In this document: positions 217 to 27,483 of the stretch, piece by piece | How positions within the stretch are numbered: the stretch's first letter is position 1 | How the letters are laid out: each line of letters begins with the position of its first letter | Virus record (IMG/VR): IMGVR_UViG_3300031669_000034 | Span: 1-58,165 of that record | From: a virus | Taxonomy: Duplodnaviria > Caudoviricetes | Reading direction: 5' to 3' (one strand) | DNA length: 58,165 nt | Notes under the pieces: model-generated | The model's database searches: none | Told to the model about the DNA's origin: nothing | Seen by the model: the letters and a program-made list of their open reading frames with translations, nothing else | Program-made: the position numbers and the translations under genes

Positions 217-1083
217 ATGCATAGACAAGAACGAGTTATAGTGGAACCAGTCAAATCGAGATATGAGGTAAAAACAACTTCATCACCAAGATTTAAAAAT
301 TATTCTGAATTACCAACTTCAAATCTCATTAAGAATATTATGAAGTTAGGAAACTCAAGTTTATCATTGAATTGCACAGAACTACTTCCGATAAATACAA
401 GATTTTATACAAAGATCAGAAACGAAAATATCTTTGTAACTGAACACCCTCCAGTTGAAAGAACGATAAGAGTTGAAGTCTATTTTTATCGAAAGAAAAA
501 GGAATTTGAAAAGTTTTGTATCCAACAAAAAGATGAAAAATATCTAACTGATTATGTTCCATTAACAAAGAACGCAAAAGGAGATTATCGACAATATACT
601 TTTAATTTGGTAATGCCATATGTCGTATTTGTTTCCATGATAAATCCCCATGATAGGCGTTTTTCTTGTTTTCTATTTTTCAGAAACGCTCCTTTAAAGA
701 AACTTTCCGATACTCTTTTTAAAGCTCCATTTTATAATATAACGGATAGTCAGAAAGCATGTATTTATGCCAGAAAATTAGATTATGATTCTCTGTATTC
801 ATTACCTATACCTCAAATGGTGGAAGAATTATTTGATATTTTCTGGGCTTCTCCTTTTAACTCAGATTATGATGGAAACATGCGTTCATATTCTAAAAAC
901 CGTTCTATTAGTAATTATTTTATGTGGGAATATTTTTCTAAAACTGATCCACTTTCAATCTTAAAAACAAACTGGATTAAATATACATCTTTAGAAAAAT
1001 TCATATCTTTTATTTTGAGCAGATTTACTGGTATAACTACCTCTGACGCAAATTTTTCAGATCTTCGGAAGGCGTTTCTGTGA
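217..1083 (+). CDS. Prokaryotic E2-like protein (Prok-E2 family D / PRTRC protein B-like)
   Basis: FNLVMPYVVF...LFKAPFYNITDSQKACIY...FWASPFNSDY resembles the E2_D pattern LxxAPFxN...C...FWxSxF; clear paralog of the N-terminus of 12568..15174. Confidence 0.65.
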   Translation: MHRQERVIVEPVKSRYEVKTTSSPRFKNYSELPTSNLIKNIMKLGNSSLSLNCTELLPINTRFYTKIRNENIFVTEHPPVERTIRVEVYFYRKKKEFEKFCIQQKDEKYLTDYVPLTKNAKGDYRQYTFNLVMPYVVFVSMINPHDRRFSCFLFFRNAPLKKLSDTLFKAPFYNITDSQKACIYARKLDYDSLYSLPIPQMVEELFDIFWASPFNSDYDGNMRSYSKNRSISNYFMWEYFSKTDPLSILKTNWIKYTSLEKFISFILSRFTGITTSDANFSDLRKAFL

Positions 1084-10143: not shown

Positions 10144-10796
10144 TGAAAATAAAAGCAGACTTTGTAACAAATAGCTCAAGCACGAGCTATACAATACAAT
10201 CGGTGGCCACAGGTCATATTGAGCCTTTGGGTAACTTAAAGAAATTAGAGACCCTGGCCAAAAAATTCAACTCTAAATATAATTTCATTTATGATGATTG
10301 TGCGCATTTTCAATATACTAAGGGGAATGCTGAATTAGAAAATGATCATCACACCATAAGTGTGAGTCTTTCGAATAAACGTATTTGGGGAAATATTACT
10401 ACCCCGACCACTATGAGAAATATTACTGTTTTACACATTTCTGTTGATAATCATCATGATTGGCATTACGACACCCTTGAATTAACAAAAGAAGTTATTG
10501 AAGAAGTATTTAGATTCTTCGATTTAAAGTCAAATTCAAACTTGAATTATGTTGCATTTCCTATTAGTTTTAAAGGAGATGGTTGGGATGGTGGGGATGC
10601 AAGTTGTGGCCCCCAAAGTAAATATGCATGGGTCAAAGATGTTTATGAGAATGAAAGTCGAATGGGTGTACTAACGATAATTGATAATAGGGTCATCCCA
10701 TATGTACTACCTCTAAAAGAAAATAGGTCATTCATGGAAGAGACAGCAAAATTCATAAATTCACAGGGGGTTTGTTTAGATGATAAGGATAGCTAA
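10143..10796 (+). CDS. MKIKxDFVTNSSS-family protein 4
   Basis: MKIKADFVTNSSSTSY. Confidence 0.75.
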   Translation: MKIKADFVTNSSSTSYTIQSVATGHIEPLGNLKKLETLAKKFNSKYNFIYDDCAHFQYTKGNAELENDHHTISVSLSNKRIWGNITTPTTMRNITVLHISVDNHHDWHYDTLELTKEVIEEVFRFFDLKSNSNLNYVAFPISFKGDGWDGGDASCGPQSKYAWVKDVYENESRMGVLTIIDNRVIPYVLPLKENRSFMEETAKFINSQGVCLDDKDS

Positions 10797-11829
10797 TTGG
10801 TTATTAACACGAAAATGCAATCTCAGGTGTGACTACTGCGCGATTGTAAAAAACTATGACGATAAACCTGGTAAATATCCTGATATGAAACATTATTATA
10901 AAAATGAAATGTCAACACATCAAGTTCTTGATGGACTCGATAAGTTGCAAACCCACAATCCAGAGATGTTTCATATCTTTTACGGGGGTGAACCCTTACT
11001 CAGAAAAGATCTACACGAAATCATAAGTCATTGTAATAAACAAAATATTTATTACACTATTATCTCGAATAATACCGAAGAGATAAGACCAATGATTTAT
11101 GACCTATGTGAGAAAGTCAAAGGAAAAATAAAAGGGTTCACCGCCTCCGTAGATCCAGTATTTCAGAATGAAATGGAATCTGGAAAAGATAGAGTCAAAA
11201 AAAGCGTACATGGTTTAGCTAATCTTGTGAATATGAAACAGTATGTAAACGATGTGGTTGCTGAGATTACAGCAATGAAACATAATTATATATACCTGTA
11301 CGATCTATTAAAAGAGCTGACCAAGTATGAAATAAACGGAGATATTACATTTATTGATATTTCTAAAAGCCCATACTATGATTTCTCAAATATTTCAGAT
11401 CCAAACTTGTTGGTGCATCAAACAGCACAGCTTGCGGATCAATTTAAGAAAATAAATAAAGATAAATCCCTAAATGTACACATGAAAGATGTACTGTTAA
11501 GAGGAATGTGGGATACACTTCCATCAAATATGAATTGTGAGATTGATAAACAATTACACAATATTTCAATTGATGCAGATGGAAGTATTCGTTTGTGTCT
11601 TAGAATAAGAGGGACTTTCACACCAGATACGGTAAATTTAAAAAATTTATTATATCAAGATGGGAAAATTTCTCCAATTGCACATGCTGCAATCAAAAGA
11701 GATAAAAAGGAGTATTGCAAATTGTGTAATCATACTTGTCATTTGATGAGTAAATATATAGAGGAAACAGAGTCCGGAGTAGATGATTTAGTTCATACGG
11801 ACGTAAGGGAGGGAACAATAAATGGTTGA
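10780..11829 (+). CDS. Radical SAM enzyme with C-terminal Cys cluster (SPASM/twitch-like)
   Basis: CNLRCDYC, GGEPLL, C...IDADGSIRLC...CKLCNHTC. Confidence 0.88.
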   Translation: MIRIANWLLTRKCNLRCDYCAIVKNYDDKPGKYPDMKHYYKNEMSTHQVLDGLDKLQTHNPEMFHIFYGGEPLLRKDLHEIISHCNKQNIYYTIISNNTEEIRPMIYDLCEKVKGKIKGFTASVDPVFQNEMESGKDRVKKSVHGLANLVNMKQYVNDVVAEITAMKHNYIYLYDLLKELTKYEINGDITFIDISKSPYYDFSNISDPNLLVHQTAQLADQFKKINKDKSLNVHMKDVLLRGMWDTLPSNMNCEIDKQLHNISIDADGSIRLCLRIRGTFTPDTVNLKNLLYQDGKISPIAHAAIKRDKKEYCKLCNHTCHLMSKYIEETESGVDDLVHTDVREGTING

Positions 11830-12567: not shown

Positions 12568-15174
12568 ATGCGCCCTGATTTGGTAGAAGAAATTAGAATC
12601 AATCCGAAGTATACGCAATACTTTTTATCTGAATTTGATAAAGATAAAGAAGAAGGAGATCCCAAAATTATCAAACGGACAATGTTTACAGCAGATTATC
12701 TTAGAAAACTGGGATCCCACTCAACTCTTGCTATGTTACCGCCAAATTGTCGATATATTGAAAGAACAGGAACCGGTGGTTATATAACAGTAATTGAAGA
12801 ACCTCCTGCTATGAGAACTATAAGCATTAGCAGAGATTTCTGGACAGAGAAAAATGAACTAGTGGAACAAGGAAAATGGGTGGAGTATGGATATAAAGGA
12901 TACAACGTTGACTTAAATATCCATAAGTTTAGTTTAGCATTTCCGTATGTAATCTTTATACTGGTGTTCGATAGGAGATTTTATCTATTAGAAGGAATGG
13001 TTTTTATGAGAATTCAACAGCTCATTGGAATGTCTGATTATTTATTAAAAACTCCTCTAAGCAATATATCCAGCGACCAAAGAATATGTTTTGGAGAGCA
13101 TGCAAATAACGGCGGGGCTAAACATTCTTTAAATCATGCGGTCCAAAATGCTATCATGGTTTTCTGGTCGGCTCATTTTAATACTGATTATACGTATAAC
13201 TGTTCAGATTATAAGAAAAAAGGTTCAGTATTTTCTAATATGTTAAAGTGGCAATATTATTCTAATACCAATCCAATGTTCATCTATGATGCTGACTGGA
13301 TTCGAATAGAAAGAACTTTTGGAGAATATATAAACTATACAAAGTGTAAAGAGTATGTAGGAGGAACTTATGCTGGAATGGATTATAAGGATGTTACTAA
13401 TTCTATTTTCTCTCAGGAAGATTCTGGAGTTGATATAAAAATCACACCGAGGGGATCCAGAAAGGCTAGACTGTTCTATGATGTTGCAAATGGAATCACT
13501 ATTGGGGATTACTTTATACATCAGGGGGATCCATTCCAATATAAAAATGGGGATATAGTATATATTGAATCTTTCGCCGGTTTTCAGGATGGGGGTCGTA
13601 TTCACTACATACAAGTTGACAAAAATGGGAAGAAGATTGTCATGAAGTTAACTTCAAAACTTCAAAACTATATTGCTGTATCAAATAAAGCATTAAGATA
13701 CGTATCAGAAGTAATTCTTCCTAATAAGACCAAAGTTAAAAGTGGCGATATTCTTATTGTTGAAGATAAGAATGGAACTTTTTATGCAAAAGTTGACTTC
13801 ATAAGGAATGCACGTGATGGGTCGATAGAAATAAAAATTGGATCTGATTATTATTTAGCTGATAAACTTAATGCTACCTTATTTAATATAACAGATCCAG
13901 AAGTTGATGGAATTAAGCTACAAAAGGGTAAAGAATATTTGATTATAACAGATCCGAGAGGAGGGTCAGTTCTGTCATCCGGAGACATATTAAAATATAC
14001 AGGAGTTTCAGTATCTGGGTCAACTAATATCAAATTTGATTTTCTTGGTGAGCGATATAGAGACTTAATCGGACCTATTACTTTTTCTTTACAGGTTAAT
14101 ACAACGCAAAAAGCTCCAAGAATTTATGAGCTCGATGCAGTTAGAGAGTTCGATGGGAGTTTTAGACTCGGAAAAAGTATATTCTGTATGACATCATCTC
14201 ATAACGCTAGGAGTTCAGGAATAACATATCCTGTAGCATGGGAACTTGCAGATGGTAATGGAGCTGTTTTTAATTCTTACTTTAGACTTGACAAACCAAC
14301 AACTCTTAATAGTCTCGTAAAAGATGACAGATTCTTCTTGCCAGGTATTCATTATGATATAGATTTTAGAGTCGGCGATAAGGTTGTTGTTGCTAACTGG
14401 GGAACTCCAACTGAGATGTTAAAGATTAAAGAGATCGCAGGATTTTCTTTTGTTAACAACGAAAGTAGTAAACGTGATGATCTATATTTTATTTTAACCG
14501 ATAGGGAAGGAAAACTATCCAAACACAAATATATTGATGGATATAAGTCAGTATGTCATATAGGAAGTGTCAGAAAAATAACGAACAGATTTAACGGAGT
14601 TTCAGCAGGTACTAAAATAATTTCTGATACAGCAGGTATTTACGGATTTCCAAAGAAAGATGTAAATATTATTATAGGATTTATTACTGATACGGGTGGA
14701 GATGATCCTCTTGTTCTTTGCTCAAATTGCCAAACCCTTTGGTTTAGTGATATTATTGCAAACTTTAAACGAGTAAGTGTGAAATCTGCAAAATGGAAAA
14801 CTCTCAGTCATTCGCCTATCGACTTGAGTAAAATCAAACCTCAAGCCGGAGATATTATCAACGGTACAGATAAATACAGAATGAATGAGGGGTATATGAT
14901 GGCCCATATGCCTGAATACTCAAATGTTAGAGCGACAATTCTATCATACTATACTGGTTATCCCGAAGCTTATGGAATGGATAGACAATTTAGTAAAGAG
15001 TATATCTATAACTGTATTCCAAATCCAAGGCTCTCTCCGAGTCAACTTAAAGAATTTGGAACGATTAGAGGGTTCTCTAACTTTCACGGACTCTTCTTTG
15101 CTAGCCAAAAATCAGGTGTAAGATTTATCAACCAACCAGGGAGGATTATAAATGTTTCCAGTAGTGCTGAATGA
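12568..15174 (+). CDS. Large protein with N-terminal Prok-E2_D-like domain and beta-rich (SH3/KOW-like) C-terminal repeats
   Basis: FSLAFPYVIF...LLKTPLSNISSDQRICFG...FWSAHFNTDY; later repeated I/V-x-x-GD motifs (IHQGD, VKSGD, FRVGD, PQAGD); overlaps the JAB gene. Confidence 0.65.
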   Translation: MRPDLVEEIRINPKYTQYFLSEFDKDKEEGDPKIIKRTMFTADYLRKLGSHSTLAMLPPNCRYIERTGTGGYITVIEEPPAMRTISISRDFWTEKNELVEQGKWVEYGYKGYNVDLNIHKFSLAFPYVIFILVFDRRFYLLEGMVFMRIQQLIGMSDYLLKTPLSNISSDQRICFGEHANNGGAKHSLNHAVQNAIMVFWSAHFNTDYTYNCSDYKKKGSVFSNMLKWQYYSNTNPMFIYDADWIRIERTFGEYINYTKCKEYVGGTYAGMDYKDVTNSIFSQEDSGVDIKITPRGSRKARLFYDVANGITIGDYFIHQGDPFQYKNGDIVYIESFAGFQDGGRIHYIQVDKNGKKIVMKLTSKLQNYIAVSNKALRYVSEVILPNKTKVKSGDILIVEDKNGTFYAKVDFIRNARDGSIEIKIGSDYYLADKLNATLFNITDPEVDGIKLQKGKEYLIITDPRGGSVLSSGDILKYTGVSVSGSTNIKFDFLGERYRDLIGPITFSLQVNTTQKAPRIYELDAVREFDGSFRLGKSIFCMTSSHNARSSGITYPVAWELADGNGAVFNSYFRLDKPTTLNSLVKDDRFFLPGIHYDIDFRVGDKVVVANWGTPTEMLKIKEIAGFSFVNNESSKRDDLYFILTDREGKLSKHKYIDGYKSVCHIGSVRKITNRFNGVSAGTKIISDTAGIYGFPKKDVNIIIGFITDTGGDDPLVLCSNCQTLWFSDIIANFKRVSVKSAKWKTLSHSPIDLSKIKPQAGDIINGTDKYRMNEGYMMAHMPEYSNVRATILSYYTGYPEAYGMDRQFSKEYIYNCIPNPRLSPSQLKEFGTIRGFSNFHGLFFASQKSGVRFINQPGRIINVSSSAE

Positions 15175-16945
15175 TGGGCAAAATGAAATGCCCAAAGATG
15201 ATATTTATTATGTTATTGCGAAAGAGGGAGTTTATCTTAAGAAGAAATTGGGGGTTATGGAAAGTCTTGCTCCAGTAAAACAGATCTCAACTCTTCAAAG
15301 CATTACAGCTACGGCCACAATGCATATTGAAAAAATTCCTGGTCCTAAATTTGCAAAGATTATCGAGTTCTTTAGAGAAGTTTATAAAGAATACTATGGA
15401 GAAGCAATTGTCCTATTATTTTATGACGAAGAGAAAAAGACCTATTTTATCATGCCTCCACATCAAAAAGTATCAGGCGGATCATGCGATTACAACAGAG
15501 GTATAACCGTAGATGGTTATACTATGATTGGTACAATTCATAGTCATGCCGCAATGTCTGCATTTCATTCTGGAGTTGACGATAAAGATGAGGAAGGGTT
15601 TGACGGACTTCATATTACAATTGGAAATGTGAGGGACGAAGAAGTCAGTATTTCAGCATCAATTGTTGCTAATGGTCATCGGATAATGGTTGATCCGAGA
15701 GATTATGTTGAACAACTGCAACTAACTCAAGACATTGATGAAGATACTACCGGGGCAACTACTAAAGTCTATGAATGGAAAGATGGTAAACTACAAGAGA
15801 ATCTAAAGAAAACGAATCGTTATGCTTACAATTATCGAAGATTTGATAAGCGCTATGTAGTAACAGTAACTGACCACCAAAAACGATTTAATCAGAAATG
15901 GATGAAGGTGGTTGAAAAAGGGCACTACGTTCACAAAGGTTGGAATCGTGGAGTTGGGCGTGGATATGGAGCAGACTGGTATACTGGCAATGGATGGGGG
16001 TATGGATTTGATGCAGACGCATGGAATCAAATGAATCAAGGATTTCAAAGAAGACTTCCAGGTTCATTTGTCGTCCATGGAAAACCAGATCCGAGAAACG
16101 TTGGACCGTACAAAACACAAGGCATAGTCTTTCCTCCTCATAAAGATGAAGATGAAGATGTAAATCATTGTCAGAATTGTGTGCATAGAGATGACAAGTT
16201 GGGTTGGGCTCTTGAGCAATTCACAGAGGAAGCAGAAGATGAACCGGATGAAGAAGATGTGATTGATAATTTTGCATCTCGGGATGATTATGACAAAATG
16301 TTTATGGATGGTAATATTGCATGCCAGAATTGTTTTGAAACTTATCACGGTCCATCCTATCAAGCATGCCCAACGTGTGGTGCACCAAATATTTCTAAGA
16401 TGAAAGCATCACAAGATCCTATAGCAGGTCAAAGATTTAGTTGCCCAACTTGTACAAACGAGTTCGATCATGAGGGAGAAGATGAATGCCCTTTTTGCCA
16501 CACAGAACTAGACTTTACCGAGTTCAGAGAAGCCGCATTAGTAGAAGACAAATCAGACGAAGAGGGAGAACCTTCGATCGGAAAAGATATTGAACCCGGA
16601 AAATGGTATATATGTAACCTTTGTACCACTATATTTGAAGCTAAATCTGTTATAAATGATTGCCATTGCCCGAGTTGTGGCAAATATATGTTGGAAGAGT
16701 ACAATTGTACTCAATATAATATAGAGGATGAAAGAACATCAATTGCCGATAAAGATTCCGGTAAATTGATGGAGGATTCTAAACGCGACATTCTTCTGTT
16801 AGCCGCTGAAGCCGATAAATATCTAGAAAGAATCCCTGATCCACAAAAACTCGAAACTCCTTTATCAACGCGTGTTCAAAAAACATCTCGTATGTCTATC
16901 AAAGAGATGTTCAAAAGGACATTTGGGAAGGAGAGAACTAAATGA
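15152..16945 (+). CDS. JAB/MPN+ metalloprotease (deubiquitinase-like) with C-terminal zinc ribbons
   Basis: GEAIVLL...IGTIHSHAAMSAFHSGVDD = E...HxH-x7-S-x2-D JAMM motif; seven CxxC motifs in the acidic C-terminal half. Confidence 0.85.
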   Translation: MFPVVLNDGQNEMPKDDIYYVIAKEGVYLKKKLGVMESLAPVKQISTLQSITATATMHIEKIPGPKFAKIIEFFREVYKEYYGEAIVLLFYDEEKKTYFIMPPHQKVSGGSCDYNRGITVDGYTMIGTIHSHAAMSAFHSGVDDKDEEGFDGLHITIGNVRDEEVSISASIVANGHRIMVDPRDYVEQLQLTQDIDEDTTGATTKVYEWKDGKLQENLKKTNRYAYNYRRFDKRYVVTVTDHQKRFNQKWMKVVEKGHYVHKGWNRGVGRGYGADWYTGNGWGYGFDADAWNQMNQGFQRRLPGSFVVHGKPDPRNVGPYKTQGIVFPPHKDEDEDVNHCQNCVHRDDKLGWALEQFTEEAEDEPDEEDVIDNFASRDDYDKMFMDGNIACQNCFETYHGPSYQACPTCGAPNISKMKASQDPIAGQRFSCPTCTNEFDHEGEDECPFCHTELDFTEFREAALVEDKSDEEGEPSIGKDIEPGKWYICNLCTTIFEAKSVINDCHCPSCGKYMLEEYNCTQYNIEDERTSIADKDSGKLMEDSKRDILLLAAEADKYLERIPDPQKLETPLSTRVQKTSRMSIKEMFKRTFGKERTK

Positions 16946-17643
16946 ATAAACTATCTATTGTTGTAGTGGGCCTCGGTGGTGTAGGTTCTATTTTAATAGA
17001 ACGTCTCGGTCGCTTTCTGAATTATGGCGATTATGAAGCAAATATGCTTCTAGTAGACGGTGATGAATACGAGGTCAAAAACTATCAAAGGCAAGAGTTC
17101 AATCAAATGGGGAATAAATCTGACGTGAAAGCAACTGAGCTACAAATAAAATTTCCTAAAATTGTGTTGGACTCGTATGATGCCTATGTAAACGAAACAA
17201 ATACTGCTGAGATCATCAGAGAGGGAGACATAGTTTTTCTCTGTGTTGATAATCACAAAACCAGAAACATCATATCCAATTATTGTATGCAATTAAAAGA
17301 TATTACTTTGATTTCTGGTGGGAATGAGTTGACAGATGGAAATGTGCAAATTTATATCAGACAAGGAGGTGTAGACTTAACACCTGATCTCTGTGCATAC
17401 CATCCTGAAATTGCCAATCCCGAAGATAAGTTACCCGAAGAATTGTCATGTGAAGAAAGAGCCAATGCAGATCCTCAGTTGTATTTCTGTAATCTTGGCG
17501 TAGCTACGTTAATGTGTTGGGCCTTTTACAAATCAATCATAAAAGGTCAGATTGATCAGCAGTCTGAAGTATATTTCGATATTCTTCAAATGTCTGCCAA
17601 TGCACAAACTCGAATTGTAAAAACTAAAGAAGGAGAAAGCTAA
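16942..17643 (+). CDS. ThiF/E1-like adenylyltransferase (PRTRC ThiF-like)
   Basis: VVVGLGGVGS, DGDEYEVKNYQRQ, K, CVDN, LSCEE (candidate catalytic Cys). Confidence 0.88.
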   Translation: MNKLSIVVVGLGGVGSILIERLGRFLNYGDYEANMLLVDGDEYEVKNYQRQEFNQMGNKSDVKATELQIKFPKIVLDSYDAYVNETNTAEIIREGDIVFLCVDNHKTRNIISNYCMQLKDITLISGGNELTDGNVQIYIRQGGVDLTPDLCAYHPEIANPEDKLPEELSCEERANADPQLYFCNLGVATLMCWAFYKSIIKGQIDQQSEVYFDILQMSANAQTRIVKTKEGES

Positions 17644-17645
17644 AA

Positions 17646-18125
17646 ATGGTACGTAGAAAAACTTATACAAGAGATCAATTGGAAGCAATGAATGCTAAAG
17701 ACCTCAAAAGTATGGCATTTCATTCACTAGGACTCAGCGGGCTGAGCAAGAAACCCAAAGATGTTGTTGTAGATGCAGTCATTGCCTATCAAGACGGTGG
17801 TAAAGCATCTATCGCACCAGGAAAGGCAGCATCTTCCGGCCCCATTACCGGACTGAACTTCACTGGTCAAAGCAGCCTAACCAATCCAGGCGCTTCATTC
17901 GGTAACAAAACCACAACCACCATTCAAGTATCATGTGGTGCATCTTCAGGAGCCTTTCCGGTTCAGGGAAAAACTGTTCGTGAAGTCGGTGAGTTTTTGA
18001 GAGAAGTTCTCAATGTGAGTCAACTTTCAACCGGTTTGGTAAATGGAAAAGAAGTCGACTCCGGTTATATTTTGAAATCCGGTGATCGTCTTGAATTCCT
18101 GAAACCAGCAGGGCGTAAGGGATAG
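17646..18125 (+). CDS. Ubiquitin-like protein with N-terminal Rho-N/HeH-like domain
   Basis: C-terminal beta-grasp pattern VNGKEV...YILKSGDRLEFLKPAGRKG*; N-terminal LEAMNAKDLKSMA..LGLSGLSKKPKDVVVDAV. Confidence 0.78.
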   Translation: MVRRKTYTRDQLEAMNAKDLKSMAFHSLGLSGLSKKPKDVVVDAVIAYQDGGKASIAPGKAASSGPITGLNFTGQSSLTNPGASFGNKTTTTIQVSCGASSGAFPVQGKTVREVGEFLREVLNVSQLSTGLVNGKEVDSGYILKSGDRLEFLKPAGRKG

Positions 18126-18138
18126 ACTATGCTTACGA

Positions 18139-18162
18139 TGGGAGCCTCATATGGGGCTCCCA
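18139..18162 (+). terminator. GC-rich hairpin after the Ubl gene (terminator or processing stem)
   Basis: TGGGAGCCTC-ATAT-GGGGCTCCCA inverted repeat; no strong U-tract. Confidence 0.5.
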
Positions 18163-18185
18163 ACTTCAATCTAAGGGGTTTAATA

Positions 18186-18722
18186 ATGAACGAAAATATT
18201 GAAAAATTATTTAATGAAAATGGCATAGATAAAGTTGCGTTTTACTATAAAAGTACTCCCTTAGTTGACAATGCATATACTACTTGCATACTTGTCAATA
18301 CAGAAAAGGGACGGATTGAATCAAGGGGTATCGCCATATGCTCCATGCGAGATACGTTCAACAAAAACAAGGGTAAAAATAAAGCGTTTGGAAGAGCTAT
18401 TGAAGCTGTGGTACGAAAGATTAATTCTGGAAAAATTAACCCTTGTGGGCGTGATTGCGAAGGAGTACGCAGACAATTCAAAATCAAAACCGAACAGGAT
18501 CAAACAAAGTTTGAAAGCGCCATTACTGAGCTTAATACTTTGCATCCTGAATTGGAAGTTGTAATTATTAATGATGGTTCTAAGAACCATACAAAATATT
18601 GTTTGAATATTCCAGCAAGCTATCCAATCCGAGTTGCCAATAAAGACTTTAAATATAAGTCTCAGTTTAGGCCAAACCCAGCCGGAAGTGAAGAATCGAA
18701 ACTATTAGACAAGGGTATATAA
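18186..18722 (+). CDS. Hypothetical phage protein with GxAxCSxxDxFxKxxGxxxAxxRA motif
   Basis: Start re-assigned to ATG 18186, after AAGGGG. Confidence 0.65.
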   Translation: MNENIEKLFNENGIDKVAFYYKSTPLVDNAYTTCILVNTEKGRIESRGIAICSMRDTFNKNKGKNKAFGRAIEAVVRKINSGKINPCGRDCEGVRRQFKIKTEQDQTKFESAITELNTLHPELEVVIINDGSKNHTKYCLNIPASYPIRVANKDFKYKSQFRPNPAGSEESKLLDKGI

Positions 18723-18735
18723 GGCAAGGCAAAAA

Positions 18736-18759
18736 GGGAGGAGAGGTAACTTTCCTCCC
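18736..18759. terminator. Intergenic hairpin with GTAA tetraloop
   Basis: GGGAGGAGAG-GTAA-CTTTCCTCCC preceded by an A-run (a U-tract on the minus strand). Confidence 0.5.
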
Positions 18760-18786
18760 AATAACTCGAAAGGAGACTAGCCAAAC

Positions 18787-19644
18787 GTGGCGTACAGAAG
18801 TATAACTATAATAGGAATAGGAACACTGGGAGGATTTATTGCAGAATCTCTTTCAAATCTGGATGGAGTAGAGGAACTAATTATAGTAGACCACGATATA
18901 GTTGAAAAAAAGAATCTAAGGAATTCTATTTATAGACAGATTGATGTTGATCTATTTAAAGTAGATGCTCTTGGAGATATATTATCTATAAATAGAGATA
19001 TTAATGTTAAACAATTTCCAATAAAATTTGAAGAAGGAACAACAAAACTCCCACACTCAGATTTGGTTTTAGATTGCAGAGATTACACTTATGACAGAGG
19101 ATCATATCTTGATGCACGACTTTATATCTCATCTAGATATCTTATGGTCGATTGTCGAAAGAATGTAAAATATGACAATCCAGTTGAAGGTAAATATCTA
19201 GAAGCTCTAACCAAAGATGATTTACGATACGCTTCAACGATGGTAGCAATGTTACTTCATAGTAATACAATTGCATCATTGATTGATGTAGGATCAGTTC
19301 AAAAATATGAACTTGATTATGTAACAAGGATTGACAGTTGCTCATATGATATTTTATATGATGCATCACCTGGAAATGATAAATTTGTCAACCTGCCTGC
19401 AAAAATTATTCCCATTTTAGATCTTAATAGAGAATATGATCTAAATGTATTTGTTGGAAGTAAGAATCTACCATTAACTGAAAGAATTATTCCTAAAGCA
19501 TCTTTAAAAGATGGAAATGATTTAATAATCAATTTAGCATCTGTTACAAGTTTACAATGCAATTTTAATCAATATCTTGTATCTCCATTTAAGGAAGGTG
19601 GAAAAGTTTATATTGAACTTATTCCTGAAACTGGAGCTGCATAA
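18787..19644 (+). CDS. Second ThiF/E1-like protein, with a C-terminal extension ending IELIPETGAA
   Basis: GTG start after AAGGAG; IIGIGTLGG, DHDIVEKKNLRNS, K, DCRD. Confidence 0.8.
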   Translation: MAYRSITIIGIGTLGGFIAESLSNLDGVEELIIVDHDIVEKKNLRNSIYRQIDVDLFKVDALGDILSINRDINVKQFPIKFEEGTTKLPHSDLVLDCRDYTYDRGSYLDARLYISSRYLMVDCRKNVKYDNPVEGKYLEALTKDDLRYASTMVAMLLHSNTIASLIDVGSVQKYELDYVTRIDSCSYDILYDASPGNDKFVNLPAKIIPILDLNREYDLNVFVGSKNLPLTERIIPKASLKDGNDLIINLASVTSLQCNFNQYLVSPFKEGGKVYIELIPETGAA

Positions 19645-19982
19645 TGAAATTAACCCGCATTGCAGTAAAAAATTTAATTGTCCCAAGACGATTGATTTTT
19701 AGAAATGAATTCTATAAAATATTAGATTACCCAAACAAATATATAATCAAAGGATATACTGTTATCTTACTTGATGATAAAATTGATGAGTTAGAAATTA
19801 GGGACTCACATCCCAATGCAAACCCAAGGACTGGAGAATTTTGTATACCAAACACATTACGAAACTTTCCATTAAACGATGAAACGAAAAACATGATTCA
19901 TAACATCTTAAGTTGCTTTAACTTAGATAATTGCTACTTCACTCCTTGGAACGAAATTCAATATAGAAAACAAGAGGTGTGA
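19644..19982 (+). CDS. Minimal E2/UBC-like protein
   Basis: SHPNANPRTGEFCIP matches the UBC active-site pattern HPN-x-G-x-x-C; coupled to ThiF-2. Confidence 0.55.
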   Translation: MKLTRIAVKNLIVPRRLIFRNEFYKILDYPNKYIIKGYTVILLDDKIDELEIRDSHPNANPRTGEFCIPNTLRNFPLNDETKNMIHNILSCFNLDNCYFTPWNEIQYRKQEV

Positions 19983-20215
19983 ACATGCTTAAAGAAAAAA
20001 AACCATTATTATCTAGAAAAAAATTGGACAAAGCTCTTGGTGAATCAATTGATGAGCTCAGCGATGCAACCAAGAAAAGTTCAAGAAAGGTCTTTGATGC
20101 TTTGATAGAAGAAGGGGTACAGACCATAAGTCATATTTTTGATAAATATAAGATAATAGCAAAACAAAAGGTGATCAGACATGGCCAAGAAAAAGACGAT
20201 AGGGATAGTGAGTGA
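19979..20215 (+). CDS. Hypothetical small helical protein
   Basis: GTG start after GAGGT; overlaps neighbours. Confidence 0.55.
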   Translation: MNMLKEKKPLLSRKKLDKALGESIDELSDATKKSSRKVFDALIEEGVQTISHIFDKYKIIAKQKVIRHGQEKDDRDSE

Positions 20216-20426
20216 AATGCACTCAGGGATTCTTGAACAAGAAATTATTCGAATTGTTGAAAAAGTAACACGTGATAATCTACTCGGATTAGCGGCAGAC
20301 GATGTTAAAATCATCGCTAAAGAACTTATGCCCGATTTTGATAGAATGATTTCTAAAAAAATCAAGGATCACTTATATGAGATAGGGGAGTTCCTTATGG
20401 AACGATTTAATACGGAAGACGACTAG
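20181..20426 (+). CDS. Hypothetical small protein directly upstream of RNAP beta'
   Basis: 81-aa ORF; AAGGTGA upstream. Confidence 0.6.
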   Translation: MAKKKTIGIVSEMHSGILEQEIIRIVEKVTRDNLLGLAADDVKIIAKELMPDFDRMISKKIKDHLYEIGEFLMERFNTEDD

Positions 20427-20437
20427 GGGGAGAAATA

Positions 20438-23155
20438 ATGCCAAAAATTCTTAACTATGCTAAATTTTGTGAAAATTTAGAGGAAGTAACCTCTCTAAAA
20501 ACATTTGGGAAAAAGAAGTTTCATTCTAATGGTTTATTCTCCGAGCAAATCTTCGGACCAGTCAGAAACTATACATGCCAATGCGGTACGTATCATGGAG
20601 TTTCAAAATCTGGAGGTACTTGCAAAGAATGTGATGTTGATATTGTTAATAGCGATGAAAGACGAAAAAGATTTGCAAAAATAGTTTTGCCAACACCAGT
20701 TGTTAATCCACTATTCTATGATTTATTAGTTGATATTGCCGGAAGAACTCTAAAAAGTGCGCTTGATGATTTAATGAAAATGGATAAGAGCGTTCTATAT
20801 ATTCAAGATGGTGAATTTGTAGTTACAGTAAACCCCGAAACAATCCCAGCTGGATTACAACAATGGGAACGTATAGAAGCTATCAGAGTTCTTGTCGAAA
20901 CATTAGCTACTGATATGGTTGCTGAGGGAATTCCGGAATGGAAAATTGTTTTAGATAATATTGATAATCTTATTATTGATACAATAATTGTATTACCTCC
21001 AGACTTAAGACCGACGTCTAAAAGTTCAGGCGAAGGAAAACAGTTGATGGACAAAATTAATCGTTATTATGTCCAGATACTAACTAAGAAAGAGATAATG
21101 AAAGATACGATTATTGATATTCGAAGAGATAAAAGTTTGTATTACACATACTTCAAACAATTACAAAAAGATGTCAGCGAATTATATACACGAATATTGG
21201 AAAAGATGGCAAAGAAAGAGGGATTGATTAGAGGAAATATTCTTGGTAAAAGAATTGATTTTTCGGGTCGAGCTGTGATAACTCCAGACCCAACTTTAAA
21301 TCTTGATGAATGTAAATTGCCCTATTTAATGATTCTTGAAATTTTCAAATTGCCTATTGCCAAAAAGATTATGTCTTTGGGTAAATTCAAGATTTTAAAT
21401 AGAGCGATTGATTATGTCGACCTGTGTATTGATAGTCAATCCCCAGCTCTTTTCAAAGTTTGTGAAGGGCTTATTCAAAATGAAGTTTGTATTCTAAACA
21501 GACAACCATCGTTACATAAACTCGGAATGCTTGGTTTCAATATTAAGATAACTCTTGATCAAGTTATTAAAATACACCCGTTGGTGTGTCCTCCATTCAA
21601 TGCAGATTTTGATGGAGATCAAATGGCAGTATATATTCCAATTACAGATGAGGCCAAACAGGAAATTCGGGACAAGATTTTTATCACTAAAAATTTAAGT
21701 AGTCCTGCAAATGAAAGTTTGACAACAACGCCAAGTCAAGATGTCATTTTGGGAATATACTATTTAACTTCCATTGAACTTACGACATATTCAGAAATGA
21801 TAGAATACAAAGGACAAAAAATTACATGGGGACAAGCTGAATTTAATAAATGTCTGCCAGAGGATTATCCAATAATTGATACACCAGTCAACAACGATAA
21901 ATTATTGGATATATTAAATCATATTAAAGATCACTATCCGGAAATGGTTACAGTTCAAGTTTTAGATGCAATCAAAAGGATTGGATTCAAATATGCTACT
22001 CTCTTTGGTTGTACTATGTCACTAAAAGATTGTACGATGGAAGGTGCCAGAGAATTTAGGGATCAGTTGTTTTCAGATGATGATATACACAAACAATTAG
22101 TAGCAGTTTCAGACCCCGCTGTAACACAAAAGATGCGAGAGAACTTCAAATATTCATATATGATTGAATCAGGTGCAAGAGGAAGCTGGGATCAAGTTCG
22201 ACAGCTAGTTTTGACCAGAGGATTTATCTCAAACTTTCAAGGAAAAATTCTTCCAGAACCAATCAAGAATTCATTGATGGATGGGTTGACTAATAAAGAA
22301 TTTTTCTATTCAACATACGGGTGTCGAAAAGGTTTGCTTGATGTTGCTTTGAATACCGGCACAAGCGGATATCTGTCAAGAAAACTAATATTTACTTGTG
22401 CAAATCTTCAAATTGATCCAATACTTGAAGATTGCGGGACGAAAGATCTTTTAACAGTTGAAGTTAAAAATAAACTGAAAGCTCGAATGTTAATTAACAG
22501 ATATATGCTTGAGAATAAAACATTAGTTAGAATAACCAGAGAAAATTATAAAGATAATATTGGAAAGATAATTCAAATTAGAAGTCCAATATTGTGTCAA
22601 AGTCCAAGAATCTGTCATACTTGCTATGGAGATCTATATAAACGATTGAATAGCAGATTCATTGGAATCATAGCAGCTCAAACTCTTGGTGAAAGAGGAA
22701 CCCAATTAGTATTAAGAACATTTCATACTTCTGGTTCAGCGGTCATTAAGGGAGAAGGAGAAGAAAGCGGGGATGTGGATCAATCAATGCTTCAAGAAGA
22801 CATTATTGGAGATCTCGCTTCTGTGTCTGAACTATTGCATAAGTTCAAAGGAAAAAGTTATGATGGTATAGTTTCAGAATTATTTGATGCCTATGGTAAA
22901 GATATTTATCATGTTCATTATGAATGTGTGGTTGCTCAGCTTATGTGGAGTAACTATCGAAAATGGAGACTATTAGAAAATAGGGTACTAGTCGAACCGG
23001 ATTACTTTTCAATCCAATCTGTGCCCAATCAGGAAAGCTGGATATTAGCGATGGCCTTCTCAAATCCAAAAAGATCAATTTTACAGGGCATACTATATGA
23101 AGGAAGATATTCAGGAGTCATGGATAAAATTCTAAAGGGGGAACGAATCACATGA
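20438..23155 (+). CDS. rpoC: Phage multisubunit RNA polymerase beta' subunit
   Basis: GLFSEQIFGP, Zn finger CQC..CKEC, VLPPDLRP, GKRIDFSGRAVI, LNRQPSLH, catalytic NADFDGDQM, bridge helix TSGYLSRKL, trigger loop TQLVLRTFH. Confidence 0.96.
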   Translation: MPKILNYAKFCENLEEVTSLKTFGKKKFHSNGLFSEQIFGPVRNYTCQCGTYHGVSKSGGTCKECDVDIVNSDERRKRFAKIVLPTPVVNPLFYDLLVDIAGRTLKSALDDLMKMDKSVLYIQDGEFVVTVNPETIPAGLQQWERIEAIRVLVETLATDMVAEGIPEWKIVLDNIDNLIIDTIIVLPPDLRPTSKSSGEGKQLMDKINRYYVQILTKKEIMKDTIIDIRRDKSLYYTYFKQLQKDVSELYTRILEKMAKKEGLIRGNILGKRIDFSGRAVITPDPTLNLDECKLPYLMILEIFKLPIAKKIMSLGKFKILNRAIDYVDLCIDSQSPALFKVCEGLIQNEVCILNRQPSLHKLGMLGFNIKITLDQVIKIHPLVCPPFNADFDGDQMAVYIPITDEAKQEIRDKIFITKNLSSPANESLTTTPSQDVILGIYYLTSIELTTYSEMIEYKGQKITWGQAEFNKCLPEDYPIIDTPVNNDKLLDILNHIKDHYPEMVTVQVLDAIKRIGFKYATLFGCTMSLKDCTMEGAREFRDQLFSDDDIHKQLVAVSDPAVTQKMRENFKYSYMIESGARGSWDQVRQLVLTRGFISNFQGKILPEPIKNSLMDGLTNKEFFYSTYGCRKGLLDVALNTGTSGYLSRKLIFTCANLQIDPILEDCGTKDLLTVEVKNKLKARMLINRYMLENKTLVRITRENYKDNIGKIIQIRSPILCQSPRICHTCYGDLYKRLNSRFIGIIAAQTLGERGTQLVLRTFHTSGSAVIKGEGEESGDVDQSMLQEDIIGDLASVSELLHKFKGKSYDGIVSELFDAYGKDIYHVHYECVVAQLMWSNYRKWRLLENRVLVEPDYFSIQSVPNQESWILAMAFSNPKRSILQGILYEGRYSGVMDKILKGERIT

Positions 23156-26598: not shown

Positions 26599-27483
26599 AT
26601 GACAGAATGTTTACCAGATATTCAATGCTCAATACCGGATATTAAAATCCCCATTATGCAAGTAGGTGTTGAAAATATTGAAGTCCCTTTCAAATTGGAA
26701 TCTAAGTATGGCGGGTATCATCAGATGATTGCAAACGTATCTCTGAGAACCAACTTGGATAAAGATACGAAAGGGATTTCAATGTCAAGATTGCTTCTAA
26801 CTTTGAAGCCATATCTTGACTTACCATTAAAGCATACATTGATCAAACAAATACTTGAAGATGTACGAAAAAATGTTGAGAGCGATGCTGCATTTATGAA
26901 GTTTGAATTTCGAATGCCGATAATACGAAAGTCTATAAAATCGGATAATGAGTTTCCTATCTACTATAAATGCAAATTTGAAGGACAGCTATTTAAATCT
27001 CCCGTATTCGTTGAACAGGGAGTATTTACAATTACAGATCATTTCAGATTCTATCAAGGCGTTATAATCCAATATGCTTCATACTGCCCTTGTTCAGCAG
27101 AGTTGTGTGGCCATTTAAATGAAAATGAGTCAAAGGGATATCCACACAATCAAAGATCGTATGCTGACATTCTTATAGAAGTTATTGACCCTCATTATTT
27201 ATGGTTAGAGGATATTATCGACGCTGTTGAAGAACAGTTGATAACTATTCCATATCCAATAATCAAAAGACTAGATGAACAAGAGATAGCAAAGGTAGCT
27301 GCTGAAAATCCGATGTTTGTTGAAGATTCGATCAGAAAAATATCACAATGTTTGAATGATCGTGAAGATGTTTTTGATTGGATTGTTAAGTGTTCTCATG
27401 AAGAATCAATACATACATCTGAAGCAATTGCAGTTAATTGGAAAGGTCGCCCGGGTGGATTTAATGGGAGAAGATATCTATGA
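26599..27483 (+). CDS. folE2: GTP cyclohydrolase IB (FolE2)
   Basis: LPDIQ, KGISMSRL, YCPCS, HNQRS, KRLDE, NPMFVED, EESIH. Confidence 0.92.
   Translation: MTECLPDIQCSIPDIKIPIMQVGVENIEVPFKLESKYGGYHQMIANVSLRTNLDKDTKGISMSRLLLTLKPYLDLPLKHTLIKQILEDVRKNVESDAAFMKFEFRMPIIRKSIKSDNEFPIYYKCKFEGQLFKSPVFVEQGVFTITDHFRFYQGVIIQYASYCPCSAELCGHLNENESKGYPHNQRSYADILIEVIDPHYLWLEDIIDAVEEQLITIPYPIIKRLDEQEIAKVAAENPMFVEDSIRKISQCLNDREDVFDWIVKCSHEESIHTSEAIAVNWKGRPGGFNGRRYL

Follow-up and report, generated by a model that had tools for sequence, protein, structure and literature searches.

Positions 17,646 to 18,125 of the DNA analysed here hold a gene that joins a helix-extension-helix (HeH) domain to a ubiquitin-like protein (Ubl). 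The DNA, called the window throughout, is the 58,165-nt stretch at positions 1 to 58,165 of IMG/VR virus record IMGVR_UViG_3300031669_000034, and it carries the genes of a tailed phage: T4-type terminase, tail sheath, topoisomerase, helicase, and RNA polymerase beta and beta' subunits. Around the HeH-Ubl gene lie genes for a ThiF-type activating enzyme (E1), a JAB/JAMM peptidase and proteins resembling conjugating enzymes (E2) (Table 1). The encoded protein is very probably a conjugated Ubl. The fuller reading, in which it is the modifier of a phage-run ubiquitin-like conjugation system and its HeH domain is a nucleic-acid-binding passenger, we put forward tentatively, at somewhat below even chances.

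Table 1. Positions of the HeH-Ubl gene, its parts and neighbouring features in the window.
Feature	Position	Strand	Basis or remark
288-aa paralogue of the E2-like N-domain	217..1083		Prok-E2_D E 0.0023, below cut-off
Radical S-adenosylmethionine (SAM) gene	10780..11829		upstream in 46 of 57 loci
868-aa protein, N-terminal Prok-E2_D-like domain	12568..15174	+	Prok-E2_D E 0.004, below cut-off
JAB/JAMM peptidase, 597 aa, zinc-ribbon tail	15152..16945	+	Prok-JAB 1.5e-4
ThiF-type E1, 233 aa	16942..17643	+	Pfam ThiF 3.1e-22; single match, residues 3-144
Shine-Dalgarno-like AAGGAG	17630..17635	+	10 nt 5' of ATG, within 3' end of E1 gene
HeH-Ubl gene	17646..18125	+	159 aa plus TAG stop; from list of open reading frames
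Rho_N-type helix-extended-loop-helix domain, residues ~7-50	17664..17795	+	AlphaFold2, fold comparison, homologue Rho_N matches
Variable low-complexity linker, residues 51-65	17796..17840	+	alignments; model confidence low from ~residue 57
Clade-conserved segment, residues 66-90	17841..17915	+	GPxTGxxFxGxSxxTxPxAxFG
ThiS/TGS-like beta-grasp (Ubl), residues 91-159	17916..18122	+	tail LEFLKPAGRKG
Terminal Gly159 codon	18120..18122	+	TAG directly after; copy without cap
197-aa open reading frame	18129..18722		present in 19 of 57 loci
GC-rich hairpin, 10 bp	18139..18162	+	14 nt past stop, without U-tract
Second ThiF-like gene (285 aa) and 112-aa HPN...C protein	18787..19982	+	ThiF 4.6e-13
FolE2 GTP cyclohydrolase gene	26599..27483		Pfam 1.1e-59; NCBIfam 213.4 bits, cut-off 215

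The gene is tightly packed behind its neighbour, with 2 nt between the stop of the ThiF-type gene and its own start; in an orthologue (L001) an AAGGAG likewise precedes the ATG. It has the highest GC content of 47 open reading frames (ORFs; 0.448, z 3.2), an excess that lies mostly in codon positions 1 and 2 and follows the Gly, Ala, Ser, Pro and Thr content, with GC at third positions ranking 4 of 47 (z 1.6). High expression was considered and is not established, the excess being largely amino-acid composition and third-position GC unremarkable. The hairpin region past the stop (18115-18200) folds at -25.6 kcal/mol (z -3.79; 0 of 200 shuffles as stable). The real start of the 197-aa ORF is probably an ATG at 18186, after AAGGGG, in which case the hairpin would be intergenic.

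An N-terminal HeH domain and a C-terminal beta-grasp

The N-terminal domain has the shape of the Rho N-terminal helix bundle. The sequence-only reading had assigned the first ~50 residues, of which LEAMNAKDLKSMA... LGLSGLSKKPKDVVVDAV are residues 12-45, to the Rho helix-extension-helix pattern, and structure prediction returned that fold in both the full-length and the isolated model. The full-length AlphaFold2 model (29 homologues) has helices at residues 9-14, 17-26 and 38-49 and an extended loop at 27-37, with a predicted local distance difference test (pLDDT) of 89-93 across the block; folded alone with 47 more diverse sequences, the domain has helices at 9-14, 17-27 and 38-50 (mean pLDDT 76.6). 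The two helices, extended loop and short leading helix are placed as in Rho. Against 48,161 solved chains, the closest fold was indeed Rho (1a62_A residues 1-48; 48 residues aligned, root-mean-square deviation 2.5 A) at Z 7.6, a value in the range below 8 where a match may mean a common arrangement. TFIID followed (Z 5.5), then the FAN1 SAP domain, YqbF and the T4 endonuclease VII C-terminus (Z 5.2), and lower down SAP and LEM domains (the SAP domains of MKL1, Hcc-1 and Ku70 and emerin LEM; Z 4.4-5.0). PIAS1 and rice SIZ1 SAP domains are also among the fold matches.

Profile searches gave a divided answer: the Rho_N profile finds the relatives and misses the window's own copy, which has no Pfam Rho_N match even at E<=1. 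Among the 29 aligned homologues, 20 match at E<=0.1 (best 5.9e-7), a count biased upward by the 6 chosen for an existing PF07498 match. The Pfam cut-off of 24.9 bits is exceeded by orthologues from two further phage records (36.4 and 35.0 bits) and by relatives with two or three HeH copies (50.9-53.5 bits). Because most homologues, these orthologues and the tandem-HeH relatives match, we assign the domain to the Rho_N family as a probable diverged member. The HeH-Ubl gene is the sole Rho_N match in four of five larger phage records (41-79% complete), and our own hidden Markov models (HMMs) found no second HeH or Ubl copy in the window, the remaining matches having E>0.2.

The domain shares with the Rho bundle (PF07498) both the helix-extended-loop-helix order and the pattern L..L....LGI.G.SK..K..LI..I. 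It differs in what follows: a spacer and a Ubl take the place of Rho's cold-shock-like RNA-binding domain, and the HeH occurs in one to three copies. Rho itself binds RNA chiefly through the oligonucleotide/oligosaccharide-binding (OB) fold that follows the helix bundle, and having the bundle therefore does not prove RNA binding.

The C-terminal part is a beta-grasp domain, in keeping with the Ubl that the same reading placed behind the HeH. Homologues match the Pfam families TGS (29 of 29) and ThiS (21 of 29), and nearly all of the listed Foldseek matches of the full model are beta-grasp proteins (TGS, ThiS, MoaD, TtuB, ubiquitin, SUMO, NEDD8). Structure matches include ThiS 2cu3, MoaD 2q5w and 6jbz, and TtuB 5gha; the first hairpin (residues 87-102) is modelled at low confidence. 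Neither PHROGs nor NCBIfam returned anything for the Ubl. A match of the whole protein to the FHA structure 2jqj (profile against Protein Data Bank (PDB) sequences, E 0.033) is at chance level and was discarded.

The tail carries the marks of a Ubl precursor. Across 33 diverse sequences G98 and K158 do not vary and G156 and G159 hardly do, giving a tail of the form LEF.K.(A/S)G.KG. The window's protein ends ...AGRKG directly before its stop, leaving a free C-terminal glycine. Of 120 close homologues, 55 end at that glycine and the rest extend one residue past it, a Cys in 60 and a different residue in 5; judged from these sequences, the single-residue caps match the Ubl-precursor pattern.

The spacer is more than the Gly/Ser/Ala linker first proposed. 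That description suits residues 51-65, which are low in complexity and vary in length and composition across two alignments (A1 and A3), and fails for residues 66-90, where F72 and S76 are invariant and G69, T79 and G86 nearly so in 29 sequences of the close clade. Our HMM found this segment in 120 of 120 close homologues and 24 of 150 distant representatives. Modelled as disordered, with low pLDDT, and absent from the E1 contacts of the complex model described below, it looks, from its conservation, like a clade-specific linear motif.

Putative activation and conjugation machinery

Complex modelling pairs the Ubl tail with the neighbouring E1. We modelled the E1 (29-row alignment) with Ubl residues 66-159 (28 rows) in three runs, alongside three controls. 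The interaction prediction score from aligned errors (ipSAE) was 0.84, 0.83 and 0.84 for E1-Ubl and 0.00 for all three controls; the runs shared at least 95% of contacts, and partner pLDDT was at least 71. Among solved complexes 58 of 80 attain the ipSAE mark, against 2 of 110 mismatched pairs, a rough calibration since own alignments were used. Ubl residues 96-101, 131-135 and 148-159 contact the E1. The tail (152-159) touches E1 residues 12-15, 101-105 and 125-134, which include the GxGGxG loop and the D103 region, and the conserved SCGAS loop (96-101) touches residues 211-225. No Ubl residue of the construct before 96 enters the confident interface. The E1 thus takes the tail into its adenylation site in silico, and the predicted arrangement seats the tail in the adenylation pocket with the HeH domain outside the E1 interface. 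ThiF-ThiS and MoeB-MoaD complexes have been solved, so such a pass may show likeness to these rather than binding by this copy.

Invariant residues and enzyme motifs occur in the neighbouring proteins. GxGGxG, D103, C170 and C192 are invariant in 29 E1 orthologues, and the JAB motif HSHAAMSAFHSGVDD exactly fits HxHx7Sx2D. Two E2-like proteins have an invariant Cys and weak family matches: C174 of the 868-aa protein (21 sequences), and C67 of the 112-aa protein, in which H56, N58 and C67 are invariant and P57 nearly so (24 orthologues) within HPNxDPxTGxFC, a UBC-type E2 pattern. The Atlas clusters nearest the 868-aa protein are viral, with PF14460 on 14-22% of members. For the 112-aa protein the ESM Atlas gave no usable match, and a formylmethanofuran dehydrogenase match (E 0.13) was not counted as evidence. 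PHROGs matched the neighbours weakly, solely to families of unknown function, and PADLOC matched a generic E1 and no other model.

These genes form a conserved block. Across 57 IMG/VR loci the genes run in the order radical SAM, small ORF, E2-like (~860 aa), JAB, E1 and HeH-Ubl, followed by the optional 197-aa ORF, a second ThiF-like gene, the HPN..C protein, small ORFs and RNA polymerase beta'. The second E1 and beta' occur in all 57 loci, the E1 in 53, JAB in 52, the E2-like gene in 51 and the HPN..C protein in 49, absences falling mostly at contig ends. A two-HeH variant (L064) occupies the same block.

Prokaryotic ubiquitin-like conjugation is currently known as bacterial anti-phage defence (Bil, CBASS Cap2); here, machinery of that kind is a conserved core block of a phage lineage. 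Bacterial operons with Ubl, JAB, E1 and E2 were predicted in 2006 (PMC1779556, Table 1 row 6d), and such operons are now described as Bil defence systems that tag a phage tail protein (PMC11601596; 10.1101/2023.09.04.556158). As in Bil (bacterial ISG15-like; BilA Ubl, BilB E2, BilC JAB, BilD E1), four separate genes of the same kinds stand together, the Ubl ends in a Gly that JAB could trim to, and no E3 ligase is recognisable; Bil Ubls too can carry extra N-terminal domains (PMC11601603). The differences are equally plain. The phage block is a syntenic core block rather than part of a bacterial defence island, its E1 is a 233-aa single ThiF domain where BilD is described as a tandem IAD-AAD-CYS (PMC11601596), and its E2-like domain resembles Prok-E2_D and is fused to ~600 further residues. 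The passages on N-terminal domains of bacterial Ubls in PMC11601603 list coiled coils, N/G-rich tails and DUF1508, and leave HeH unmentioned. The block also recalls PRTRC (ParB-related, ThiF-related cassette), found on plasmids and integrative conjugative elements, since the JAB matches PRTRC_A (2.5e-12) and the E1 PRTRC_ThiF (4.3e-10), but the scores lie far below the cut-offs (46.7 against 101.8 bits; 39.3 against 144.75 bits). No ParB homologue was found among the neighbours scanned.

A rival reading has the beta-grasp act chiefly as a sulfur carrier like ThiS, MoaD, TtuB or CysO: the E1 would adenylate it, a thiocarboxylate would form, and the HeH would bring the carrier to a nucleic-acid substrate for thiolation. 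Likeness to these carriers is real: a small beta-grasp with Pfam ThiS matches and fold matches to ThiS, MoaD and TtuB, a short single-domain E1 of ThiF/MoeB type, a JAB partner, Gly-Cys ends in half of the close homologues and a radical SAM gene upstream in 46 of 57 loci. A JAB would in this case trim the Gly-Cys end as Mec+ and QbsD do; residues after the C-terminal Gly are removed both from QbsE by QbsD and, by Mec+, from the CysO-Cys adduct. Yet the tail is K-G rather than G-G, with K158 invariant; no rhodanese, ThiG, MoaE, TtuA-like or other sulfur-transfer partner occurs among the neighbours scanned (part of the window); and the radical SAM protein resembles SPASM maturases, NirJ and viperin, not sulfur-inserting enzymes. 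Two E2-like genes with an invariant Cys are conserved alongside, poly-Ubl relatives exist, and the phage protein differs further from the carriers in its N-terminal HeH. We regard a sulfur carrier as improbable.

A further alternative dispenses with conjugation: the protein would be a small, abundant DNA- or RNA-binding protein whose beta-grasp is an interaction domain or a TGS-like RNA-binding domain, with E1 and JAB serving another role. The most consistent Pfam match (29/29) is to TGS, a beta-grasp family associated with RNA, the whole protein is basic (net charge +8, isoelectric point (pI) 9.75), and the high GC content and stable 3' hairpin are what an abundant product might show. Four observations oppose it. 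The terminal Gly is nearly invariant and bears single-residue caps, the complex model buries the tail in the pocket of the E1, poly-Ubl forms need cleavage, and E1 and JAB genes accompany even those Ubl-only relatives whose gene order differs. We therefore hold an unconjugated role to be highly improbable, and keep to a conjugated Ubl.

The HeH domain as a proposed passenger

The fusion recurs widely among relatives, in line with a check the earlier reading had proposed on homologous phage Ubls. HMMER over 1.84 billion cluster representatives returned 720 at E<=1e-3, 171 at 1e-10 and 56 at 1e-30, and we scored architectures on the best 150 of the 720 with our own HeH and Ubl HMMs. One HeH plus Ubl occurs in 89 and two HeH plus Ubl in 14 (P0160, among these, has three copies by Pfam), so that 103 of the 150 hold the fusion; the longest match is 355 aa. 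Ubl without HeH occurs in 33, two to four Ubl units in tandem in 8, and HeH only, as fragments or as HeH repeats without Ubl, in 6. Each unit of the poly-Ubl relatives ends ...G.KG, and those tested exceed the ThiS and TGS cut-offs. None of the best 150 fuses HeH or Ubl to E1, E2 or JAB. A metagenome scan seeded with a Ubl-only profile, from which 80 of 184 confirmed loci were kept, gave 58 HeH-Ubl, 1 HeH-HeH-Ubl and 21 Ubl-only loci (12 with a complete N-terminus). One protein, P0256 (355 aa), has four acidic Rho_N-type repeats (Pfam 52.4 bits) without a Ubl; its N-terminal stretch looks cold-shock-like by eye, in an order the reverse of the Rho N-terminal domain.

The conjugation module is older than the HeH domain. 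At the 12 complete Ubl-only loci an E1 homologue adjoins 9, a JAB 6 and an E2-like gene 3, in varying order, and the other 3 loci are too short. Because these loci keep E1, JAB and E2-like neighbours in varying order, sequence comparison indicates that the HeH joined the Ubl later, in one large phage lineage, where its copy number went on to vary; inside the same operon there are 1, 2 or 3 copies. The absence of HeH from 33 of the 150 representatives, together with the E1 and JAB genes that Ubl-only loci retain, makes it dispensable for the core chemistry. Lys-rich N-terminal tails seemed to replace the HeH in two Ubl-only proteins (L112, L143), a candidate we dropped given the tiny sample and one tail of net neutral charge.

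Conjugation as we envisage it would run in four steps. The HeH-Ubl protein would be made from its own ribosome-binding site. The neighbouring JAB would trim the extra residue, mostly Cys, from capped orthologues; the window's copy would need no trimming, ending already at Gly159. The adjacent 233-aa ThiF-type E1 would bind the beta-grasp and adenylate Gly159. The Ubl would then move to an E2-like Cys (C174 of the 868-aa or C67 of the 112-aa protein) and on to a target amine, a step JAB could reverse. The HeH domain, at the far N-terminus behind a flexible spacer, is N-terminal to the reactive Gly and so would ride along as a passenger displayed by every conjugate. Cargo at this end is tolerated in a related system, as an N-terminal HA tag on BilA is described as compatible with Bil function (10.1101/2023.09.04.556158).

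What the passenger binds is argued by analogy, whereas conjugation has good support in silico. The sequence-only reading held that conjugation would graft a nucleic-acid-binding module onto targets. Its conjugation half stands up, in that the Ubl has the Gly tail, the caps, the E1, JAB and E2-like neighbours and the modelled E1 contact of a conjugatable protein, and the HeH would ride along; its other half, the ligand, comes by analogy of fold. Most of the closest solved folds belong to DNA- or RNA-associated proteins (Rho N-terminal domain, FAN1, Ku70, Tho1, DEK, T4 endonuclease VII). HeH instances have a median net charge of +2, with pI >8 in 69% of 243, and the window's HeH carries +3. K/R stands at HeH positions 21, 35 and 38 in 94, 93 and 96% of 110 domain instances from the representatives. 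Given a conjugated Ubl, the analogy suggests with about even probability that the ligand is nucleic acid, with tagging serving to anchor targets on DNA or RNA or to concentrate them there.

In a competing account, the conjugation system is the same and the HeH is a protein-docking module that recruits conjugates or free Ubl. Candidate partners, and they are candidates only, are the downstream phage RNA polymerase, the C-terminal part of the E2-like protein, the JAB zinc-ribbon tail and a host factor. Several near folds do bind proteins: emerin LEM binds BAF (7ndy, 2odc), the SAP-like domains of MANF/CDNF bind BiP (6h9u, 9i5y) and SLX4 binds MUS81 (7bu5), at Z 3.7-4.8. The operon lies directly upstream of RNA polymerase beta' in 57/57 loci, 19% of the 243 HeH instances are acidic (pI <6), and the conserved 66-90 segment, free of E1 contact in the model, resembles a linear binding motif. 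Most HeH instances are nevertheless basic with a conserved K/R cluster, and the best structural match is the Rho N-terminal domain, the others being mostly DNA- or RNA-associated. On balance we think docking rather unlikely and retain the nucleic-acid passenger. A more extreme reading, in which the HeH brings the Ubl to the end of a nucleic acid and the Ubl is attached to that end itself, has only a very slight chance.

A number of findings count against the nucleic-acid passenger on a conjugated Ubl, each step of which is drawn from sequence and models. On the HeH side, besides the window's missing Rho_N match, the modest Z of the Rho fold match, the protein-binding near folds and the acidic instances, one four-HeH protein lacking a Ubl has HeH units of net charge -15. 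Foldseek matches of the N-domain (Rho, FAN1, 3'hExo, Tho1, DEK and the PIAS1 SAP) all have E >=1.1. The K/R cluster at 21, 35 and 38 is the loop-to-helix-2 signature, generic to Rho_N and SAP domains, and as a general family signature it does not single out nucleic-acid binding. The Ubl-only relatives adjoin the same kind of E1 and JAB genes. On the conjugation side, the window's own Ubl matches Pfam ThiS below threshold (E 0.017; 16.1 bits, cut-off 22.5; residues 107-155), its TGS match being sub-threshold too, and the best Foldseek beta-grasp match has E 0.17. The Prok-E2_D match of the 868-aa protein is likewise below cut-off, its N-domain has no solved-structure match when its profile is compared with PDB sequences, and the 112-aa protein matches human E2 1yrv weakly (E 0.87).

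The nearest eukaryotic parallels are functional analogies, with homology limited to the domain folds. PIAS SUMO E3 ligases and SDE2 likewise couple a SAP/HeH-type module to a Ubl pathway that works at nucleic acid. In PIAS the SAP is on the ligase, while SDE2, which combines a Ubl with a SAP domain, has its Ubl cut away from the part bearing the SAP; the phage HeH, unlike either, is on the modifier itself and would be transferred along with it. Should the passenger bind nucleic acid, the modifier's own sequence would dictate the destination of the tagged protein, and a DNA or RNA anchor would make this a tag that relocates proteins rather than destroys them. A broader scenario, in which an uncultured jumbo-phage lineage runs SUMO-like tagging with a modifier whose DNA/RNA anchor pins phage or host proteins to the genome or transcripts near the phage polymerase, is doubtful. 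A passenger that binds nucleic acid would also offer a simple, testable entry into phage use of Ubl tagging. Even if the passenger only docks, the protein would clearly exemplify modular cargo carried by a prokaryotic Ubl, in 0 to 3 copies.

Distribution and neighbouring genes

The lineage is abundant in soil, sediment and aquatic metagenomes, with 720 clusters at 50% identity and contigs up to ~308 kb. A word-indexed search found 366 homologues at E<=1e-3 among 414 candidates; at least 120 homologues share 51-87% identity with the query, on contigs as long as 255 kb. A tblastn search of the protein against 50,697 INPHARED phage records gave zero matches, so a cultured model is not at hand. 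Neither a poly-Ubl query (P0161) nor a Ubl-only query (P0240) brought up relatives when viral contigs were scanned. Among 185,579 prokaryote species, one genome each, there were 2 loci, both on contigs of metagenome-assembled genomes (MAGs) carrying the same phage block. MAG contigs assigned to an uncultured bacterium, Thermoplasmatales and Thorarchaeota (L062, L063, P0110) with the block or the protein are probably misbinned phage.

A literature search over titles and abstract openings, with subscription journals mostly outside its reach, found no phage-encoded HeH-Ubl and no phage E1/E2/JAB/Ubl block; in a jumbo-phage overview (PMC7824862) JAB, ThiF and HeH do not occur.

Sequencing runs place the locus in several environments. 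DNA near-identical to window positions 15000-20500 (92-99% of sampled words) is present in 14 DNA runs labelled as soil, sediment, marine-sediment and aquatic metagenomes, seven of which are possible sources of the window's DNA, and six RNA-library runs contain 11-28% of the words sampled from the same region. Four RNA libraries, from four studies, yielded short contigs that span portions of the gene and its neighbours; DNA carry-over is possible, and as such contigs show neither transcript level nor strand, we did not use them for expression strength.

Further genes flank the operon, which in the window lies between replication genes and RNA polymerase. Scores of the radical SAM protein against the SPASM peptide maturases, NirJ and viperin that it resembles are far below the cut-offs, and its gene is more likely tied to the small MKIK...NSSS proteins encoded before it than to the Ubl. 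Upstream of the operon, at a distance of 11 kb, is the 288-aa paralogue of the E2-like N-domain. Just past the RNA polymerase genes, the FolE2 GTP cyclohydrolase could feed folate or 7-deazaguanine synthesis.

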